A stretch of DNA of 64,000 nucleotides from a virus. Its lineage: Duplodnaviria > Caudoviricetes. A model generated the notes under the pieces. It saw only the letters and a program-made list of their open reading frames with translations. It did no database searches and had not been told where the DNA came from. Positions 2,655 to 57,485 of this stretch are shown in pieces. Where the stretch lies: the IMG/VR virus record IMGVR_UViG_3300043120_000039, positions 1-64,000 of that record, one strand, 5' to 3'. The position numbers were made by a program, and so were the translations under genes. The first letter of the stretch is position 1, and each line of letters opens with the position of its first letter.

Positions 2655-3075
2655 AAAACAATCGTAAAATTGAAGTTGGTCAAATGCGAGAGATTAAGAG
2701 CTGTTGCCAAAAGTATGTTATTCTTTGGCTTAATGATACCTTGGTAAAAGTTTTAATCTTGAATGGTGAAGATTATGGAAAAACATTTTATTGGAATCTT
2801 AAGTTTATCAACGAAGATATCGTTGTAATGTGAGGTATATTATGACAAAAGTTGAACTTGCGAAGATGATTGGTCTTACTTGTGATACTTGGAATCGTGT
2901 CCTCAAAGTAGATAAATGGCAGATAGAAGACCTTTTGCAGCACGAATATGAATGGATTGAGCAAACATTTTGTAATGGAAAAATTAGAGTTTGTGTGCAG
3001 CAAAAAGATTTAGCAAAAGATTCATAATGCTGCAATGATGCTAGGTTGAGGAAGGATTAATGTTGCAAACGAAGT

Positions 3076-3549
3076 TTGAAGGAGGTTGGTTTGGGTGAGG
3101 TTGTTACCATCTACACAGATGGGAGTGCTTTAGGTAATGGTAAGAAAGATGCTTGTTGTGGAGCTGGTGTCGTTCTTATCTTTGGTGAGACAGTGAAAGA
3201 GCTTAGTATACCTTTGCCGAATTACACTACTAATAATCAGGCAGAGCTATATGCATCAATTGCAGGTTTGGATGCTCTGAAACGCCCTTGTAAAGTAATC
3301 CTATACACAGATTCAAGTTATGTCCAACAAGGTATTACAACTTGGATGCGAGGCTGGAAAAGACGTAATTGGATGACAGCAAATAAAGGCGCTGTTAAGA
3401 ATAAAGATCTTTGGCAACAATTAGATTTATTAGTTCAACAACATGATGTAGAGTTCCGTTGGGTAAAAGGTCACAATGGTGATAAGTGGAACTCTAAAGC
3501 TGATGAATTGGCTGTTGCAGCGAGTTATAGTTTGAAGGAGGGTAAATGA
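3076..3549 (+). CDS. rnhA: Ribonuclease HI
   Basis: YTDGS, TNNQAEL, YTDSSYV, WVKGH and ADELA motifs; true start probably slightly downstream. Confidence 0.95.
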   Translation: MKEVGLGEVVTIYTDGSALGNGKKDACCGAGVVLIFGETVKELSIPLPNYTTNNQAELYASIAGLDALKRPCKVILYTDSSYVQQGITTWMRGWKRRNWMTANKGAVKNKDLWQQLDLLVQQHDVEFRWVKGHNGDKWNSKADELAVAASYSLKEGK

Positions 3550-21661: not shown

Positions 21662-24612
21662 TATTTAATACTCCCAGAAGAAAGATTCATTGCTGCACCT
21701 TCTAGCATATCACCATTACTCTTCTCAACTTTAGCTTCGATTACATCATCCAATCCATTAGGGTTGACGTTGATGTCAATTTGCAATTTACCACGCTCTT
21801 TAAGCCACTGCATAACATTAGCATTACGTTCATTAGTTGTAGAAAGTCTATCATATAAACTCGTACCACCTTCATAACCAGAGAGAAGTACACCTAATGG
21901 TCCAAGTAGCTTACCAGATTGTCTTAATGCACCTCTTGCTGCAGTTGATACTACACCTCTTGTGCCAGTGCTTGCTGCTGTTGTTGCAGCCGTAGTTGGT
22001 GCTTTTCCTGTTAAAGTTTTCATTGCATCTGCTGCACGTTTTGCAACTTTATAAGCAGTAGCTAAAGCTTTTACAGATTTAACTAATACCCACACACCTG
22101 CGGCGGCTCCAATCACTGTTCCTGTCCAAGTGAGAAGTGATTTAGTGGATTCATCACTTAACCCTGTTACATCTGAGATCCAATAAGCTAAATCTGTTAA
22201 TGCAGCTACTGGTAAACGAATAATGGTTGTTAACCCTAATAGAGCACCACCAAGTACAGTACCTGTAAAGTATGCAGCATTACCAGACTCTTTAGACAGA
22301 TCGTTGAAGCTATCTAATGCAAACATTACAGAAGGTTTCATCCCATCAAACATTTGCTTTTGTAATTCCACAAGTTGGTTACTTGCCCTACCAACTGCAG
22401 GTGATAAATTCTCTCGCAATGCTTTTGCTAATTCGTCATTGTTGTTAGCAAGTTCACTCATTGCTTTACCAAAGTATGGTAAAACTGTACCAGAGATTAA
22501 CTTACCTTGTTCCATTAATTTAAACAATGCAGCTTCACGTTCTTGAGCTGTCTTACTTCCGTCAATCAATCCAGCATCTACAGCAGCTTTTGCCATAGCA
22601 CGCATTGCGAACGGAACTCTCTCCATATCTTCAATTAAAGACGCAACTCTTTAACCAGCTTTCTTTATGTTTATCAACATTAAGTAGCATCTCTATGTCA
22701 CCATAGAAGTTGAGACTATATCTTCTATCTTTCGATAGCCCACCGTTTGGAGTATCATAAGCTTATACTCTACTCGCTTACATTCATCAGCGATAGTCGT
22801 TCGGCATGTTAAGAATAATTCTTAATTTAGCACAGGATTGTCTTCAATAAGAGTTCCCCTGTTTAGATGGGTTTATACTGAGCAAGAGACTGTTTTACCC
22901 AGTTGTTGTGTTCATTGTGTTCAATAATAATCGCTACTTATTATCCGCACCATTACGTGCTGCTATAGGCTTTCCCTATATGTTCGGACTATATCTTCAC
23001 CTTCACCATTATGTGTTAAGGGCGGTATTTAGAATGTCAATCGCTTACATTCACTTAGTCTCTGAGCCTTAATCTACTTGAGATTATTGGCTGCGGATTA
23101 CCCAATCTTGATAACTTTTTACTCTACCAAACACATTACTGTTTGCCCTTAACTATGTCACCATGCTAAGTTAGTATTATCAAGCTCTAAGTGGCTTCCC
23201 GCATTAACTCCGATTTATCAATTACATTTCTGTAAAAGGAGCCAGCACATTTTAAAATTACTAATAAAATCAATAACCTAGCTCGTCTGCTTGTATTTTA
23301 CCTTTCAATGTGTTCAACTAAGTTCGTTAAGCTTAGCCAGCAGCTTTACCTGCGTCTCTATGTCTCCATAGAAGTTCAGACTATATCCTCTGTACAATGT
23401 ACAGCTTCCTGTTTCGAGTCACTTGACCCTACTTGGCTACACTCATCACCAATAGTCGTTGCACGATCTCAATATTATTGAGCTTCGCTCAGGATTGTCC
23501 TCATCTTAAAATGTTAGGATGTTCCCTGAATTAAGGAAGTTTACCCTGCCCAAAAGTCTAGACAGCATTTGTTTAACAGCAAGAATTGTACCACCTAAGT
23601 CTTCCCGACTTAGACCCAATGCAACACCAGCTTCTTGAATACCTGTAAAGGTAGCTTTAAGGTCATCCATTGTCATCTTGTCGCCAGCAGCAGCAATCAT
23701 AGATGAGAAACCCTTACTTGCTTCCATGATTGGAGAACCTAAGCGCATAGCTTCTGAACGTACCCAAGCCATATTCTCTGCTGCTGCTTTAGAATCAGTT
23801 GATACAACTTTGAAACTCTTCTGCATAGATTCCATTTGCATACCGATGTTCAAAGAAGAACTAATTCCTGCTGTTAAAGCATAAGCACTACCGAGTGTTC
23901 CAACCATCTGCATTACGGAAGAGTTCATACGCTGTTGGAATACATTACGCTTTTCTACTTCACGTGTTAATCTACGATTCTGTGCAAGAGTATCAGAGAT
24001 TGCTGCACGTTCTTTTCTCATTAGATAAATAAGCTGTTCTTGAGTTTTAGCTTGCATGAGTTTCTGTTTAAGAACTGCTTTCTCTTCATCACTCATCTGC
24101 CTGATTGCACGATTAGATACCATGAAATTTCTAATAGACTTTTCTTGTAAAGCATTAAATTTTTCTTGGTCACGTTGCATTCTTACATGAGAATCATGAA
24201 GTGGTGATTTAGCTTTGTTTTCTGAGCGTAGTATATCAGCAAACATAGTCTGAGAAGCTTTGTTAGTGCCGTCAGATATTAAACCACCTACTGCTTGCTT
24301 CCTACGTGCATTCTGTTCCATTTGAACACGTTGTTCTTGTTTTTTAGCTAATTTGTCTTCAATTTTTAATTGGTCAGCAAGCAGGGTGTTAGATGCTTTT
24401 TGGAACTTAGTTTTATCTTCATAAGGTTTAGTTATTCTTGAACCAGAACCTCTTTTACTTGTACCTAAACCTCCAACATCTACTTGAAGTTTTAACATTT
24501 TAGCAACTTCAGATCTGAAGTTTTGTATCTGTTTACGAGTCCTTTTCAAACTTCGTTGATCAAGCTTTAACTTAACCAAGTTTGTATACTGACTCCTTAC
24601 ACGTTCTGTCAT
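21661..24612 (-). CDS. Tape measure protein, spliced: join(24612-23560, 23305-23280, 22912-22897, 22623-21661), about 685 aa
   Basis: Joining the exons gives KQMLS|KGKIQADEL|TQQLG|ERVPFA, the conserved tape-measure motif, in one continuous frame. Confidence 0.9.
22624..22896 (-). mobile_element. Group I intron 3 in tape measure gene (273 nt, no ORF)
   Basis: P1 cugggu/gcucag; AACGACUA and AAGAUAUAGUCU; terminal G; ucuc can pair with exon 4 gaga. Confidence 0.9.
22913..23279 (-). mobile_element. Group I intron 2 in tape measure gene (367 nt, no ORF)
   Basis: P1 gagcu/ggcuc; AGAGACUA and AAGAUAUAGUCC; terminal G. Confidence 0.88.
23306..23559 (-). mobile_element. Group I intron 1 in tape measure gene (254 nt, no ORF)
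   Basis: P1 cugucu/gggcag with U-G; P7 elements GACUA and GAUAUAGUC; ends in G; IGS acuuuu can pair with exon 2 aaaggu. Confidence 0.9.
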
Positions 24613-45399: not shown

Positions 45400-47119
45400 T
45401 TATCGCATAGATTGTTTCATGTCATGATACTTTGTGCGGACAGATGTTGTTGGGATAGGGACTGGTCTGTGCACTTTGTTTATTTTTATTTGATGGAATG
45501 CATCAGCAGTGGCGTCACAGATATCGTCGTGGACACCAGATATACGCACACTTGGGTCAAATATTTCCAACTCTTCATGGAAAGTTTCATTCCAATCTGC
45601 CTTAACCACACTAACCATCCTATTTTCTGCAATTACTGCAAAAGGTTCAAATGCTTTTAGTTTACGGTTTTTAGTGTTTGATGTCTTCATACGCTTAACT
45701 AAAACACCTGCTGCTGATATATCTCCAATCATCTGGTCACAAGCTGCTTTTCCGCTCGACGATGGATCTTCTGGGATATAGGTTGTAACATTACCCCACT
45801 CTTCTTGATCACGCAACCCAGTTTGTATAATTTCATCCACCACACCGGCATACCTTTTCCTGAACCTAACCACATCAAGGATGTATATATGATGATCCTT
45901 ACCTTGACCCATAAGAACACCAACAGTATAATCAGGGTCTGGGTATTTTTCAGAAGGAATACTCCCAGCCAAGTCATAAGCACGTACTATTTTAACAAGG
46001 TCAGGTACATCATGAAGCATTACTGTTTCAGTCCACTCCCTCTTATATAAACCTGCTGCTGTTTCCTGTACAAGCCATGCACCGTTAAGTAGCCTCATCC
46101 TTTCAATACGAGGTAAGGATTTAAGACGTGAGACGTACAATGGATCATGCTCCAAAAGAATTGGATTGTCTTCACAAGTTGCTGAAATAAAACGAAAACT
46201 CATAGGCCCAGAATCTTCGCCATATTGTGAAACAAGTTCTTCTCTTGAATCACCCCAGATCATGTCATTACCTTGCCGGATAAACCACTTTTCTACACCA
46301 TCCATCTCTGGTTTAGGTATTCCATAGTTCTTTTCATCGAGATAACCTGCCGCCTGCAGCCATTTTCTTAGGTAGCAATTAAATTCTGGGTTGCACGTAA
46401 TCTTCATAACAGGCTTCATATTTGCCATAGTACGCATACGTGATATAAAATAAACCACCTGAGATTCAAGCATCTGCTGACCCTCATCAATGAGGAACGC
46501 TGCTACCTGCCAGCCTTGAAAATTGTGCTTATCGCTTTCTTTCTCGCAGTGACACATCTTAATTTCGGCACCGCTAGGAAATTTAAACTCCATTGTAGAA
46601 GGTTTGACATGTACAGAAGGACAAGCTTCTTTATACATATTCTGTGCCGTATCTAAAAGACCACCCACACCTTTAATCATCGGGGTTGTTCTTCGAACCA
46701 TTACCCCCCTAAATTCTGGCATATGAACATATTGAAGCATATCCATAATACCAAGATAGGATTTACCTGAACCCTTTTATCTTACAGTCGCTACACTGTT
46801 TCTAATGTTTCCACTAGGATCGGACTATATCTTCCGTCTTATAGACAGCCTCCTGTTTCGAAATCGCTTGATTCCTACTCTACTCCATTATATACTTTGT
46901 ATATTGTTTCGATAGTCTCTGAACGTTGAATCACTTAATGTGAAACCTTCGCTGCTGATTGCCCTCGGCTTAACGTTAGGGTTCCCAGACAATTAAAGAG
47001 GTATATTAAAGCGCAACCAGTTTGGTAAATTTAGCAGCGCCACCAAAAACTGTAATATCAGATTTTGATTGTAAGAACATAGCCTGCTTCTGAGAAGCAG
47101 GACCAAGTTTTTTAGTCAT
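45400..47119 (-). CDS. terL: Terminase large subunit, spliced: join(47119-47033, 46773-45400), about 486 aa
   Basis: Splicing restores Walker A GGAA|GSGKS; also IDE Walker B, TCNP, YDLA and HDD.CDA nuclease motifs. Confidence 0.93.
46774..47032 (-). mobile_element. Group I intron in terL (259 nt, no ORF)
   Basis: P1 gcgcugcu/gguugcgc with U-G; CAGAGACUA and AAGAUAUAGUCC P7 elements; terminal G. Confidence 0.9.
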
Positions 47120-51123: not shown

Positions 51124-51696
51124 ATGTTTGGAAGAAAATTTAACACAGAAGAACAAGATATTTGGGTAACAAGTGATTTACATTTTGACCATGGTAATAT
51201 TTTACACTTCTGTCCAAAAACACGTAATTTCAAGAATACTAATTCCATGAATGAGGCTTTGATTACCGAATGGAATACTAAGGTTAAACCAGAAGATTAC
51301 ATTATCCATCTTGGAGATTTCTGCTTTAAAGGTGTGGAGGTAACAAGTAGCTTCTTACAACGCTTGAATGGTAAGAAAATTATGATCCATGGAAATCATG
51401 ACAAATCACTACGTAATGGTATTGCTGATGGTAAGTTTGGTATTGTCTGGAAAGGTGATTATCTTGAGATACAGATTGATAAACAAAAAGTAGTTCTATG
51501 CCACTACCCCCTCACCACTTGGAATAATGCTGGGCGGGGAAGTTTACAATTGTTCGGCCACTGTCACGGGTCTCTTCCTGAACCTAAAGGTAGACAAATT
51601 GATGTTGGGTATGATAATCTTGGTGAAATTAAGAACATTAAAGAAATTATGAAGATTCTTAACAAGAAAGAAATTTATTCACCTGACCAACACTAG
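51124..51696 (+). CDS. Calcineurin-like metallophosphoesterase
   Basis: SDLH, LGDF, GNHD, HYP and GH.H motifs. Confidence 0.88.
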   Translation: MFGRKFNTEEQDIWVTSDLHFDHGNILHFCPKTRNFKNTNSMNEALITEWNTKVKPEDYIIHLGDFCFKGVEVTSSFLQRLNGKKIMIHGNHDKSLRNGIADGKFGIVWKGDYLEIQIDKQKVVLCHYPLTTWNNAGRGSLQLFGHCHGSLPEPKGRQIDVGYDNLGEIKNIKEIMKILNKKEIYSPDQH

Positions 51697-51706
51697 GAGA
51701 ACTAAT

Positions 51707-52600
51707 ATGAAATTAGATGTATCTGACCTTATCGAAAAGGGTCTAGTTATTAAGAAAACTTACACCGAAGGTAAATATAAAGGTTTGTCAGTCCTTAAAT
51801 ATCATCGAAAGGTTTTCTACAATAATCTGTGGCATATTGACGAGCGACTGCTTGAATGCCGAGGAACTGTTGTAGATGAAGCTTGGAATGTTATTGTACT
51901 GCCTTTCCGTAAGGTGTTTAATTTTGGTGAGAATGGAACAACTGTTGACCCTGAGCAAGTGGTGATCTGTCCTCGTAAAGTAAACGGTTATATGCTTTCT
52001 GTAACTTATAATAAAGCTTATGGTTATATTGTATCTACAACAGGAAGTCTTGATTCTGAGTATGTTAAACTTGGTGAAGAGTGGCTAGAAACAATTAACA
52101 AGGATGCTCTATATGAAGAAGGTGTTACCCATATATTTGAAGTTTGCGATAAACGTGACCCTCACATTGTAGAGGAAAATGAAGGTATTTATCTAATAGG
52201 ACGTAGGTATCATGACACAGGTAAAATGTCATCAGAATATTTTCTAAATGGGCTATCCAAGGCTGCTGAATGTAGGCGTGGTGAGTTGTGGGTAGGTAAA
52301 TTTAAAGATCTACCTACTGACGTTAATCATGAGGGGTATATGGTTAAGGATTACTTCACAGAAGAGGTTCTTTGTAAATTAAAATCACCACACTACCTCT
52401 CTAAGAAAGCAATTATGCGTCTTGGTAAAGCTAAAGTGGACATTTTGTTTGATAAACCAGACTTGTTTAAACAACGAATTGATGAAGAATTTTATGAGTT
52501 CGTAGACTATCTTGCAGAAAATGTTGACAAGGAAGTATGGCGTTCTTATAATGATCAACAACGACGAGAATTTATTGAGAGGTATTATTATGGAGAATAA
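51707..52600 (+). CDS. RNA ligase 1 (T4 RnlA-like)
   Basis: ECRG, F.KVFN..E, KVNG, EG.V and KLKS..Y motifs. Confidence 0.85.
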   Translation: MKLDVSDLIEKGLVIKKTYTEGKYKGLSVLKYHRKVFYNNLWHIDERLLECRGTVVDEAWNVIVLPFRKVFNFGENGTTVDPEQVVICPRKVNGYMLSVTYNKAYGYIVSTTGSLDSEYVKLGEEWLETINKDALYEEGVTHIFEVCDKRDPHIVEENEGIYLIGRRYHDTGKMSSEYFLNGLSKAAECRRGELWVGKFKDLPTDVNHEGYMVKDYFTEEVLCKLKSPHYLSKKAIMRLGKAKVDILFDKPDLFKQRIDEEFYEFVDYLAENVDKEVWRSYNDQQRREFIERYYYGE

Positions 52601-52601
52601 A

Positions 52602-53018
52602 ATGACTAAGAAAACTTTATATATTCTAAGAGGACTACCATCTAGCGGAAAGACAACTTTAGCTAAAACCTTGGAAATTTCCTTACAGGATTGTATTGCA
52701 TATGCAGCAGATGATTTTCATTATGATGACCAAGGGAATTATAATTGGAAACCAGAAAATGTTCATTTAGCTCATAAGTGGTGTCAAGACAGTGTTATGG
52801 TTTGTATGGATGCTGGTGTAGCTAATATTGTGGTTCATAATACATCGACATCTGAAAAAGAACTAAAACCATATACATCTATGGCTAATGCTTATGGATA
52901 TAAAGTTGTAAGTCTGATTATAGAAAAACGTCACAGTAATAAGAACAATCACAATGTTCCAGAAGATGTTGTTAATAAAATGGAAGAACGTTTACAGCAT
53001 AGTTTAAAATTACGTTGA
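52602..53018 (+). CDS. Polynucleotide-kinase-like P-loop protein
   Basis: RGLPSSGKTT, ADD, V.NT and HNVP motifs. Confidence 0.8.
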   Translation: MTKKTLYILRGLPSSGKTTLAKTLEISLQDCIAYAADDFHYDDQGNYNWKPENVHLAHKWCQDSVMVCMDAGVANIVVHNTSTSEKELKPYTSMANAYGYKVVSLIIEKRHSNKNNHNVPEDVVNKMEERLQHSLKLR

Positions 53019-54513: not shown

Positions 54514-54930
54514 TTATTCAATACTAATAGTTTTTGGAAGTTCTTCTTCTGGGATAATCTTGTTAAGATAAATCTTAAGTAACCCATCTTCAAGTTTACT
54601 TGAACAAACTTCAACGCCTTTTTGAAGAGTAAAACTTCGAGTGAATTTACTACGTTTGATTGTAGATTCAAGAGTTGATTCATAACCGTCTTCAACTTGA
54701 TCAGAAGGTTTACCTTTTACAGTAAGAATATTCTTCTCAAGCTTAATTTCAATATCTCCTCTCTTATATCCTGCAAGTGCAAGTTCAATAACATATTTAT
54801 CTGATTTGAACTTTTTGATTGAATAAGGTGGGAAGATGGAATTGTTTGTGAATCTTAAAGTATCATTTGCATGATTACCAAAAGAAAAATCAAACAGTGT
54901 GAATAGGTCACGTTCAAAAGTAGAAAGCAT
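54514..54930 (-). CDS. Small heat-shock protein (Hsp20/IbpA-like)
   Basis: PPY.I, IELALAG, F.RSF.L, L.DGLL.I and P..I.I motifs. Confidence 0.92.
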   Translation of the reverse strand: MLSTFERDLFTLFDFSFGNHANDTLRFTNNSIFPPYSIKKFKSDKYVIELALAGYKRGDIEIKLEKNILTVKGKPSDQVEDGYESTLESTIKRSKFTRSFTLQKGVEVCSSKLEDGLLKIYLNKIIPEEELPKTISIE

Positions 54931-54989
54931 AATAAGTCTCCTTATTTATGTTAATGTTTATGAGCAATATCTCTATTGTCCCAGGTTAA

Positions 54990-55044
54990 GTGAAAGAAAC
55001 CCTCTTACAAAACCATGTAGCTCACAATCTTGATAAGAGGGTTT
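54990..55044 (-). terminator. Terminator-like stem closing the candidate ncRNA
   Basis: AAACCCTCTTA...TAAGAGGGTTT followed by CTTTC on -. Confidence 0.55.
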
Positions 55045-55630
55045 GGTTAAAATCGGCACGTCTACCTAGACATTCACAGTGTCTTACCTCTGGCTCCGAA
55101 GAGTCTCAAACTTGCCTTGCGGCTAACATTACCACTAAACCTTATAACGTAGTCCGTGGTCAAGACTCCGGTTTTACTCTCAACGAATCCAATATCATGC
55201 AAAAATATCGGAGGAGAAAGTACCATACTTCAAAGTGTTGCCTCACCTTCTCATAACGGCTATGGTTAACCTGATTTCTAAGACCAATCGTGAAATATTG
55301 AAGTCACAGTTTACTCTGCCAAGTCGTGATTGATGTCTATTTAAACTCGCTTCATCTACTTGGAGCAACCCGAGTTGTCAGCCTTCAATAAGACAAGGTT
55401 AGTGACTGACACGCTTCCTTGAATAAAGTAACACCTTAAACCAAAATCTCTTGTGAACAACGATGGTAGTCGTGAGAATTGTCCAGATCTTGTGTGAAAA
55501 GTGTTAAAATTAAAAGCTCTATTGATACAATCATCCGGTAGCGACACATTCCGATTATATCCATGAGTTGAGCCACTTCTCATGCGCCTTGCTATAACAA
55601 CTTCGGTCCCAAGGTCGAATCTTTTCTATA
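55045..55630 (-). ncRNA. Candidate large structured non-coding RNA (about 580 nt)
   Basis: No credible ORF, raised GC, GCAA and UUCG tetraloop hairpins, own promoter and terminator. Confidence 0.65.
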
Positions 55631-55635
55631 CTTTA

Positions 55636-55665
55636 ATCTTAGCAGTTATTGTTTACTTTTGTCAA
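55636..55665 (-). promoter_or_regulatory. Sigma70 promoter for the candidate ncRNA
   Basis: TTGACA (55665-55660), 18-nt spacer, TGc-TAAGAT. Confidence 0.65.
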
Positions 55666-56762
55666 GCAGAGTCTTAACGAAATCTACCAAGCTACAGACG
55701 ATCATAAATGCTACGAAAAAGAAATCAAAAGTATCGTCCTTCGTATTGAAATGGAAGTCTCCTGTAAACATACCAACTAATAGTAGTACTGCTGCAATCG
55801 AACCTAAAATATTAATAGTTTTTGAAATCATAATCAATTCTCCTCTAAAATTTTAATTTTATTAAAATACACACTTTTCACATCATCAATGAAATCTTTG
55901 AAAGTAGTTCCCATTCCAACATAGTGTAGTGGTACACATTCAATATAAGCATCAATTAACATTTTAAGCTTATCATCATCTTGTGTAGAATTCAACTCTT
56001 GTCGCCAAATAATTTCTGTTACACGAGAATGTTTGATTATATCAAGTTTAGTTAGTGGTTTATTCAAAATCAAGTACCTCTTTCAAATCGTCTAACATTT
56101 TCAAGATAACTTTATCACTTTCTTCTACATCGCGCAAGTATTTATTAATAGTAAATGAATGCGATGAATAAAGTTCCTCTTCCACAAACCATTTCTCATC
56201 TTTGATGAAAGCCTCTTGTGGAAGGTTAATTTTCTGATAAAGTTTATGTTTTGTCAACAAGTAAATATCCTTTTCATCAAGATTTTGTTTTGCTTGATGA
56301 AGAAGTTCCAACTTTGTGACAGAAACTGTGACTTCTTGAGAATGTGTTGCTTTAAGTTTTATTGTCATAACCCTAACACCCTGTCACCAATATCCATTTC
56401 TAACATAATGTTGCACACTTCTTCAAAAGCTTTGAACTGATCTTCTGGAATATAATAATCAATTTCTCTAAGAGTAACATTTGTTTGCTCATATTTAAAA
56501 CCAGCAAACACATAATGTACTAACAATTTATAAGCTTCTTTAGTTTGTGATGGATTTACAAAATTAATAATTTTCATCAATCAACACCTTTAATTTAATC
56601 AGACAATCTTCTCCTGCTGAACATTTCACTACAAACTCTGGATTCTGCACAGCATGTTTATAAGCTATACCTTCATACAAGTCCATAGCGAGCTGTTCTA
56701 CAGCAAGATAATAACCTTCATACCTTTCAAAACAATAAATTTCCATTTCATTTATCATAAGC

Positions 56763-57041
56763 TCACTCCTCAAACCAACCAATTGCACACTCTGTGTTAG
56801 GTTCTACTTCTGTAAAACCTCTGTCAACATGAATATGATATAACGCGTCCTTGTTGTCAAGACAATATTGTTTATATTCTTCAAACTTCTTATCGCTTGC
56901 TGTAAGGACAACTACAACATCATCCCAAGCATCTGTGTCACCACAAACTTTACCAAGCTCTTTACCGATATGTGTACACACAGCAGCAAGTTTTTGTGGT
57001 GAGAGTTTAAGGCTCTTTCGGTAATAGATTTTAATTTTCAT
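56763..57041 (-). CDS. Peptidyl-tRNA hydrolase 2-like protein
   Basis: S..KLAA...H and D.G.TEV.P...A.G PTH2 pattern. Confidence 0.7.
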   Translation of the reverse strand: MKIKIYYRKSLKLSPQKLAAVCTHIGKELGKVCGDTDAWDDVVVVLTASDKKFEEYKQYCLDNKDALYHIHVDRGFTEVEPNTECAIGWFEE

Positions 57042-57485
57042 GAAATCTCCTCTCTGATTTTCATAAGTAATTTACCAAGATTGTTTTCACCTTCATTAGT
57101 TTTAAGACTTACACCCCAAAAGATATCATTCCACCAATTCATTTCTACAAGTTCTACATCTCTAGTCTCGATGAGTTTTTGACGTAGAATTGGGTTATGT
57201 TCAGAGAACTTATATCTTAAACTATATTCCATAACATTGATTTTAACTTCATCCCAATCCGATCTCCATTCATGTTTGAGAGAATTGACATATTTCTTCA
57301 AACCTTTGCTTGGGTGATTAGATATCTCTTTCCTATGTACACTACCTTTATCAAATTTCATTGCTTGGTAAAAGTGTTCATTTGTGGTAAAGGTTAGTCC
57401 AAAGTAAAACATTGGTTTTTTCGAAATATGTAAAGTTTGATAAGAATGAGAATTCTTCTCTGAAACCTTTTTCTGTTTGGTTCAT
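57038..57485 (-). CDS. NADAR (YbiA-like) family protein, frameshifted at an A6 run
   Basis: FLSNF motif in one frame; EHFYQA.K, W...K, KF, E....D..WG and G.N.LG..LM..R in the next. Confidence 0.8.

Follow-up and report, generated by a model that had tools for sequence, protein, structure and literature searches.

A predicted modular RNA gene upstream of hsp20 in an uncultured phage as a probable counterpart of the ICP1 long non-coding RNA

What occupies a gap of 715 nucleotides (nt) on the minus strand of a tailed phage genome in which no credible gene can be placed? The question is raised by positions 1 to 64,000 of the IMG/VR virus record IMGVR_UViG_3300043120_000039 (hereafter the window, meaning this whole 64,000-nt stretch of DNA), whose parent record is 124,995 bp long and estimated to be 99% complete. 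The gap lies between an open reading frame (ORF) of 63 amino acids (aa) and hsp20, directly upstream of the latter as first described, and the RNA stretch within it has the raised G+C content previously noted (0.38-0.44, against 0.26-0.33 in the flanks). A preliminary description made from the sequence alone proposed that it holds a stand-alone gene whose product, a structured non-coding RNA of about 580 nt, recalls the GOLLD and ROOL class and may be new. The structured RNA gene is supported here by covariation and by homology to a transcribed RNA of phage ICP1; the proposed class is not, as there is no Rfam match, and the locus is a relative of an RNA already known rather than a new kind. 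We consider it highly probable that the locus is a self-contained gene specifying a stable non-coding RNA of about 640 nt, modular and structured, which is the counterpart of the long non-coding RNA (lncRNA) found in ICP1.

The unit is bracketed by a host-type promoter and a terminator, and no ORF inside it is conserved (Table 1). The promoter hexamers, their 18-nt spacing and the extended -10 TG are as originally described, and place the predicted transcription start near 55629; the RNA would then measure about 585 nt to the base of the terminator, close to the first estimate, and about 640 nt with the terminator included. The terminator-like stem is likewise present and thermodynamically strong. 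It was not picked up by a simple terminator scan, and the sequence directly 3' of the hairpin is UUUCUUUCAC. A strong hairpin with a U-rich tail also ends all six other loci tested (7/7 with the window), and although the outer stem is unlike its counterpart in phage vB_CoeS_P1, both sequences nevertheless fold.

Table 1. Predicted elements of the RNA gene, followed by neighbouring genes (positions in the window).
Feature	Position	Strand	Remarks
Sigma-70-type promoter TTGACA-18-TAAGAT, extended -10 TG	55665-55636	-	score 10/12
Predicted primary transcript, ~640 nt	55629-54989	-	ends placed from promoter and terminator
Module A (5' module)	55506-55626	-	helices 55615-55612/55589-55586, 55584-55579/55567-55562, 55561-55553/55532-55524
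Module B1	55421-55497	-	two stacked helices 55492-55485/55449-55442, 55482-55478/55461-55457
Module B2 hairpin UGUCAGUC/GGCUGACA	55376-55411	-	common to qdvp001, vB_CoeS_P1, R16F
Module C	55229-55376	-	hairpin 55249-55244/55237-55232; one CAGAGUAA..CUGUGA motif copy at 55318-55304
Hairpin between C and D	55189-55211	-	pairwise alignment with vB_CoeS_P1: kept, two double changes
Module D, H-type pseudoknot	55131-55170	-	stem 55170-55165/55153-55148; stem loop 55160-55156 pairs with 55135-55131
Module E	55053-55123	-	GNRA-capped hairpin 55123-55114, UUCG hairpin 55103-55094, hairpin 55066-55055
Intrinsic-terminator-like hairpin, then U-rich tail	hairpin 55044-54997, element 54989-55044	-	-23.3 kcal/mol, z -3.0
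63-aa ORF, upstream edge of gap	55646-55837	-	ORF list
hsp20, neighbour outside the RNA	54514-54930	-	PF00011, E 1.7e-14
NADAR-domain protein, upstream in same gene block	57038-57412	-	PF08719, E 1.1e-22
Metallophosphoesterase	51124-51696	+	RNA-repair-like cassette
T4 Rnl1-type RNA ligase	51707-52600	+	PF09511, E 8e-10
P-loop kinase	52512-53018	+	AAA_33

No ORF in the gap exceeds 75 aa on the RNA strand or, on the other strand, 88 aa. The unit might encode one or more small proteins, for example from the 75-aa ORF at 55583-55356, given that ORFs of 41-75 aa occur on the RNA strand and that a weak AAGG lies just 5' of the ATG of this one. Against this, the ORF matches in relatives are fragments of 20-53 aa, in overlapping frames and on both strands, with differing stops, a pattern which indicates that the nucleotide rather than the protein sequence is conserved. 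The frames are moreover broken by module boundaries and insertions, substitutions are patterned as in paired RNA, and the conserved coding signal in short ORFs that would speak against an RNA gene was looked for by comparing the ORFs of the gap with those of relatives and not found; a coding role is thus extremely unlikely. In many phage records (those behind our loci L006, L016, L017, L018 and L020, and others) 'hypothetical proteins' of 30-70 aa are annotated over the modules on either strand, and these are probably gene-caller artefacts.

A blastn comparison with 50,697 phage records matched 94, 92 of them records of Vibrio phages and two of Shewanella phages, with different relatives matching different pieces of the query. 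Among the 40 matches listed, 38 fall in unannotated stretches or unannotated records, and for all of the four relatives that were fetched first it falls within a gap of 0.7-1.05 kb that is free of ORFs, on the strand of the neighbouring genes. Similar promoters are found at the same distance in 11895-B1, 1.101 and vB_CoeS_P1.

Comparison with ICP1 suggests what the unit is. Barth et al. 2020 (PMC7567579) report that the most abundant transcript of this phage is a non-coding RNA of ~800 nt in the gap between ORF140 and ORF139, discrete and far above its neighbours in abundance, and a 2022 preprint (10.1101/2022.04.08.487710) describes its confirmation by Northern blot and its many ligation chimeras with phage and satellite transcripts, and suggests a sponge role. 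Boyd et al. 2021 (PMC9040626) note the conservation, in ICP1 and related phages, of a highly sequence-divergent lncRNA that lies upstream of the lysis genes, and it is to this known RNA that the window locus is related. Beyond these three works our literature searches brought up nothing on how the ICP1 lncRNA is folded or what it does, and neither Rfam nor the literature yielded a family or a published structure for it.

The promoter, modules A and E, the terminator and the flanking proteins of the window all match ICP1. The blastn search aligned module E (55122-55053) with ICP1 across 70 nt at 88.6% identity (E 6e-15). Iterated nhmmer places module A at 1729-1828 of L003, the ICP1 locus stretch that we fetched and to which all L003 coordinates refer, right after ORF140, and a module A profile built without ICP1 finds L003 1728-1827 with E 7.9e-11. 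Directly 5' of it, at L003 1686-1715, is the same TTGACA-18-TAAGAT promoter with its TG. With the ICP1 terminator at L003 2577-2602 the predicted ICP1 unit is ~890 nt, which is compatible with the published ~800 nt. As to the flanks, the proteins are in synteny with ICP1: a 180-aa membrane protein is 66% identical to ICP1 ORF137, and a 71-aa upstream ORF is 55% identical to an ICP1 ORF upstream of the gap. The ICP1 stretch itself is 99.7-100% identical across the 52 ICP1-type records listed, and at least 99% identical in 82 of the 94 matching records.

The window RNA runs, from its 5' end, through modules A, B1, B2 and C, a small hairpin, modules D and E, and the terminator. Helices of A, B1 and D, together with several hairpins, are maintained by compensatory base changes, and a homolog and covariation check of the kind suggested in the preliminary description yielded both relatives and compensation in all three modules. 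Module A, which contains the invariant UCGCUACC and ends in a U-rich tail, is present in 11 of 23 sources, ICP1 among them; its covariance model (R2) gives the window 120.9 bits, and 55624-55508 is recovered (E 2.9e-21) by a profile from which the window had been left out. Across the 11 sequences its 22 pairs have 89.9% of cells paired, with double changes in 12 pairs, a level reached by none of 500 shuffles and compared with 29-51% of cells paired in slid controls. One of its helices is the CATGAG/CTCATG pairing predicted at the outset, which shows compensatory changes. The B1 model (R1) matches 16 of 24 sources at E<0.001, and the conserved motifs UCUCAC and ACUACCA lie within the module; its 13 pairs in 13 sequences have 94.7% of cells paired and nine pairs with double changes (0/500 shuffles on four of five measures and 2/500 on the count of double-change pairs; slid controls 36-61%). 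Module D, found by nhmmer in 13 of 23 sources, has 11 pairs with 94.5% of cells paired and eight with double changes (0/500 on four of five measures, 1/500 on pair types; slid controls 23-49%). Most phages have ACCAC/GUGGU as its pseudoknot helix, phage 1.193 has AUUGC/GCAAU and vB_CoeS_P1 has GUCAC/GUGAC, that is, the second helix of the module has been independently rewritten twice. The slid controls and these independent rewrites are the stronger argument for structure than the shuffles, whose counts are not probabilities.

In the remaining parts of the RNA (B2, C, the hairpin between C and D, and E) smaller hairpins also show compensation, in alignments of only two to four sequences each. 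The B2 hairpin has one compensatory pair, G-C to A-U, in two of four sequences, and for the predicted GTCAGT/GGCTGAC helix one compensatory pair is seen in two of four. Module C is 85-87% identical to VnaP and IBT_VpB-34, and pairing in its 3' hairpin is preserved through a double change in three of four sequences. A proposed GAGAAGGT/ACTTTCTC helix is not favoured, as a local hairpin, AAGGUG/CACUUU, preserves pairing by double change in three of four sequences, and the suggested long-range ATCGGA/TCCGAT pairing is not supported, its 5' half sitting in a covarying helix of module A. Module E, also present in phage 1.101, has compensatory changes in its first and last hairpins: the GCC-GCAA-GGC hairpin becomes ACC-GAAA-GGU in ICP1. 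The CTC-TTCG-GAG hairpin is identical in ICP1 and different in 1.101, and the AACTCG/CGAGTT pairing is present and invariant in the three sequences that carry it. The folding energy of the whole RNA is mildly better than that of shuffled sequences (minimum free energy z = -1.71, 20 shuffles); the case for structure is made by covariation and not by this score.

The recurrence of short motifs reported earlier also holds. The composite motif CAGAG(G)UAA..CUGUGA has two copies in the 64 kb, both inside the RNA, in module C and, as CAGAGGUAA..CUGUGA at 55092-55074, in module E; at least two copies were found in 0 of 100 shuffles. In relatives this motif is limited to homologous modules. UCACGA occurs three times in the RNA (55475, 55329 and 55293). 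The motif RCUACC occurs in 18 distinct contexts, the top of 20 permutations, and its complement in 17; as the two are about equally frequent it may be merely a recurrent helix, and no conclusion is drawn from it.

Modules A, B1 and D recur across ICP1-related vibriophages, and the loci that carry them share a common layout. In 10 of 22 related loci ARAGORN identifies tRNA genes (Arg-TCT or Arg-CCT, Gly-TCC and Met-CAT) that share the strand of the RNA, and HNH, NUMOD4-HNH, T5orf172 or unnamed ~180-aa ORFs are annotated within the RNA locus in several relatives. Wherever two or more features co-occur their order is promoter, A, tRNAs and/or endonuclease, B1, variable modules, D, E, terminator; where the modules exist, the tRNA and endonuclease genes lie between A and B1. 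In the window just 9 nt separate the end of A (55506) from the start of B1 (55497), and this slot is therefore empty; ARAGORN finds no genes in the 64-kb window, and the Rfam tRNA model, positive on control genomes, finds none in the 125-kb parent genome. One further module is not collinear between qdvp001 and vB_CoeS_P1. The R16F record and ARAGORN disagree on the strand of its two tRNAs (L010 1115-1290), which they place on opposite strands. Exact patterns, which miss divergent copies, located module D in one IMG/VR locus (qdvp001 itself), one metagenome contig and no GTDB genome contig, and module A in two IMG/VR loci. We also considered whether the RNA is specifically hypervariable relative to vB_CoeS_P1 and rejected this, as the whole neighbourhood is mosaic.

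The tRNA genes of relatives and their loss from the window, the common endonuclease ORFs and the mosaic module content would also be expected of a decaying remnant of a tRNA cluster, or of a homing-endonuclease scar, that is transcribed and has no function of its own. Compensatory substitutions nevertheless keep the helices of A, B1 and D, the stretch is nearly invariant among ICP1 isolates, and no module is tRNA-like to ARAGORN or Rfam. We regard a remnant as very unlikely.

GOLLD and ROOL are large, phage-borne, highly structured RNAs of unexplained function, often found beside tRNA genes. The modules could thus be domains of a single tertiary architecture, one globally folded 'ornate' RNA of this kind, possibly a multimer, with the variable parts at its periphery. 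The size (640-900 nt), the phage location, the tRNA genes nearby in relatives, the GNRA and UUCG tetraloops and the pseudoknot are all in keeping with such an RNA, and the authors of PMC7567579 made the same comparison for the ICP1 RNA. The Rfam searches proposed in the preliminary description (ROOL, GOLLD, tmRNA and RNase P) gave no match. At gathering score, Rfam 15 reports only three group I introns in the window, all elsewhere, and with E values up to 10 the region 54800-55800 returns only noise far under the cut-offs (DUF3800-VIII, sroD and ncr952); the GOLLD and ROOL covariance models match in neither search, and at E up to 0.1 eight related loci return two tRNAs only. There is, moreover, no universal module, ICP1 and the window having only A and E in common, and all covariation detected is within modules, with no supported long-range helix. 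Finally, B1 occurs by itself in the tRNA array of an unrelated 191-kb Vibrio phage, pv27, adjoining a tRNA-Met (L025 2998-3146, with the tRNA at 3070-3146 by ARAGORN), which favours independently folding modules over one global fold. A single ornate architecture is therefore unlikely, if less so than decay. The pv27 feature table, as shown, lacks that tRNA-Met, and its tRNA numbering skips one.

Other classes were examined in the same way. As first stated, there is no tRNA or group I signature: the Rfam Intron_gpI model matches nothing in the region even at E up to 10, and as it finds the three introns elsewhere in the window it evidently works on this genome. A tRNA or tmRNA was rejected on the ARAGORN and Rfam results given above, and RNase P and the remainder of the Rfam library are excluded as far as membership is detectable by these searches. 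A replication origin or primer RNA was rejected because the ICP1 theta origin is placed near 60 kb (PMC7145576) and the lncRNA near 80-85 kb, in coordinates that vary between isolates.

A long cis-acting leader or attenuator would govern how far transcription reads through to hsp20 and to the membrane and lysis genes beyond it. Several observations are in its favour: hsp20 is on the same strand and a promoter scan gave it no convincing promoter of its own, the U-tract of the terminator is imperfect, module A ends in a U-rich tail that in ICP1 is followed by a terminator-like hairpin (L003 1834-1852), and the RNA of ICP1 sits immediately upstream of its lysis cluster (PMC9040626). The downstream gene, however, varies between phages, being hsp20, a 78-aa ORF or genes for membrane proteins, whereas the RNA is kept together with its terminator, which makes a leader for hsp20 or the lysis genes less likely; among the fetched loci hsp20 is 3' of the RNA only in IBT_VpB-34 and PWH3a-P1. 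The strong terminal hairpin at every locus tested, the discreteness and abundance of the ICP1 transcript reported in PMC7567579, and the tRNAs, trans-acting products, that the unit carries in relatives also argue against a leader, and we think it improbable. A second terminator follows hsp20 (54496-54475). The terminator of the ICP1 RNA (L003 2571-2611) resembles the region of this second one (window 54504-54464; 80% over 41 nt), which would fit an insertion of hsp20 between the RNA and an older terminator.

Several points weigh against an RNA gene homologous to that of ICP1. The ends and level of the window RNA are predictions, ICP1 alone having transcript evidence in the literature and a search for sequencing runs that contain the window stretch having listed none of RNA, and only the end modules A and E match ICP1, neither nhmmer nor the covariance model detecting B1 or D there. 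No module is universal among the relatives, so that the family is defined by mosaic sharing, and the closest relative, vB_CoeS_P1, is without A and E despite its near-identical promoter. The covariation alignments comprise 11-13 sequences, some of them close relatives, and the shuffles ignore phylogeny. The interrupted U-tract of the terminator makes read-through into hsp20 possible.

With these points weighed, a gene for a modular, stable counterpart of the ICP1 lncRNA still accounts best for the locus. The unit is probably a tRNA-free form of a phage operon of tRNAs and stable RNAs, with a layout broadly analogous to the T4 region containing tRNA genes, rnaC and rnaD, in which the non-tRNA RNA would have been retained even after loss of all tRNAs, as in ICP1. 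It would be transcribed by the host RNA polymerase from early in infection, could accumulate by virtue of tight folding, and might act in trans as RNA; its mosaic module content could have arisen by recombination, probably aided by homing endonucleases. The most speculative step is that the modules would be decoys for, or sponges of, RNA-directed factors from the host or a satellite; this is less likely than not, although an abundant decoy or sponge acting in trans is the function towards which we lean. A still more tentative proposal, and on balance a doubtful one, is that the family is a third kind of large RNA at phage tRNA loci beside GOLLD and ROOL, made of exchangeable and independently folding modules, in which A and B1 bookend a slot that gains and loses tRNAs and homing endonucleases, the non-tRNA modules, retained even where every tRNA has gone (as in ICP1 and the window), are the essential cargo and counter, as abundant decoys or sponges, RNA-directed defences of the host or small RNAs of satellites, and T4 species 1 and 2 are distant functional analogues.

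Other features of the window were recorded in passing. The three group I introns (22691-22952, 23356-23599 and 46801-47058, all on the minus strand) score 59.6-74.3 bits, above the Rfam gathering score, and two of them are less than 700 nt apart. An RNA-repair-like cassette (51124-53018, plus strand; Table 1) is convergent to the RNA locus and is noteworthy in a tRNA-free phage; homologs of its Rnl1-like ligase are widespread, occurring across many genera in 614 phage records, and the VnaP ligase is ~7 kb from the RNA, with no linkage inferred. As for the NADAR-domain protein encoded upstream, NADAR enzymes undo the ADP-ribosylation of nucleic acids.

In ICP1, a much-studied phage, no transcript is more abundant than the lncRNA, and the window adds a compact, tRNA-free version from an uncultured phage. 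Beyond the literature searched, the comparison adds defined modules whose helices, a pseudoknot among them, are backed by covariation, as well as a shared promoter and a view of the RNA as the non-tRNA part of an operon of tRNAs and stable RNAs with an insertion slot between A and B1. The conserved modules make the question posed by the ICP1 lncRNA easier to test, through the modules that are dispensable, the processing of the RNA and the partners of its invariant loops, and many probably mis-annotated 'hypothetical proteins' over modules are flagged in vibriophage records.

Among known systems, GOLLD and ROOL share with the window RNA a large size, phage location, abundant structure and, in relatives here, an association with tRNAs; they differ in that their covariance models do not match, in the mosaic make-up of the present RNA with no universal core, and in their hosts. 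The stable non-tRNA RNAs of phage T4, rnaC and rnaD (species 1 and 2), resemble it in layout, lying beside tRNA genes including a tRNA-Arg and the homing endonuclease gene segB: the T4 order is tRNAs, segB, tRNA-Arg, rnaD, rnaC and then the e.8-e.3 genes, with the lysozyme gene e presumably further downstream. A unit containing tRNAs and a homing endonuclease is seen in the relatives of the window phage, where strand and spacing suggest co-transcription; the window has neither. Within the 5' hairpin of T4 rnaD, 11 nt are identical to the invariant core of module A. A motif shared without change by 11 of 11 module A copies, for which the match to the window extends to 11 nt, is found once in the 8-kb T4 stretch, within rnaD (L024 3152-3159, minus strand), and in both RNAs it sits in a hairpin closed by G-C pairs. 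By our own estimate the identity would be expected by chance at ~0.04 if any 11-mer is counted and at ~0.004 if the invariant 8-mer is, and it could be due to chance; we treat it as a lead only. Homology to species 1 and 2 was rejected, as the R1 (B1) and R2 (A) models match nothing in the T4 tRNA region, and the T4 RNAs differ in being 119 and 139 nt long and in their 3' parts, which we take to be tRNA-like.

The comparison with ICP1 is closer. The window RNA is shorter (~640 nt against ~890 nt predicted for ICP1), its middle consists of B1, B2, C and D where that of ICP1 consists of modules found in other phages, the gene 3' of it is hsp20 and not gp139, and its phage comes from a metagenome. 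The two have in common the promoter hexamers, spacing and TG, homologous A at the 5' end and E at the 3' end, an intrinsic terminator, a location in an ORF-free gap that precedes homologous membrane-protein genes on their strand, and a genome that carries no tRNAs. Judged by these shared elements, the window RNA is a compact counterpart and relative of the ICP1 lncRNA.

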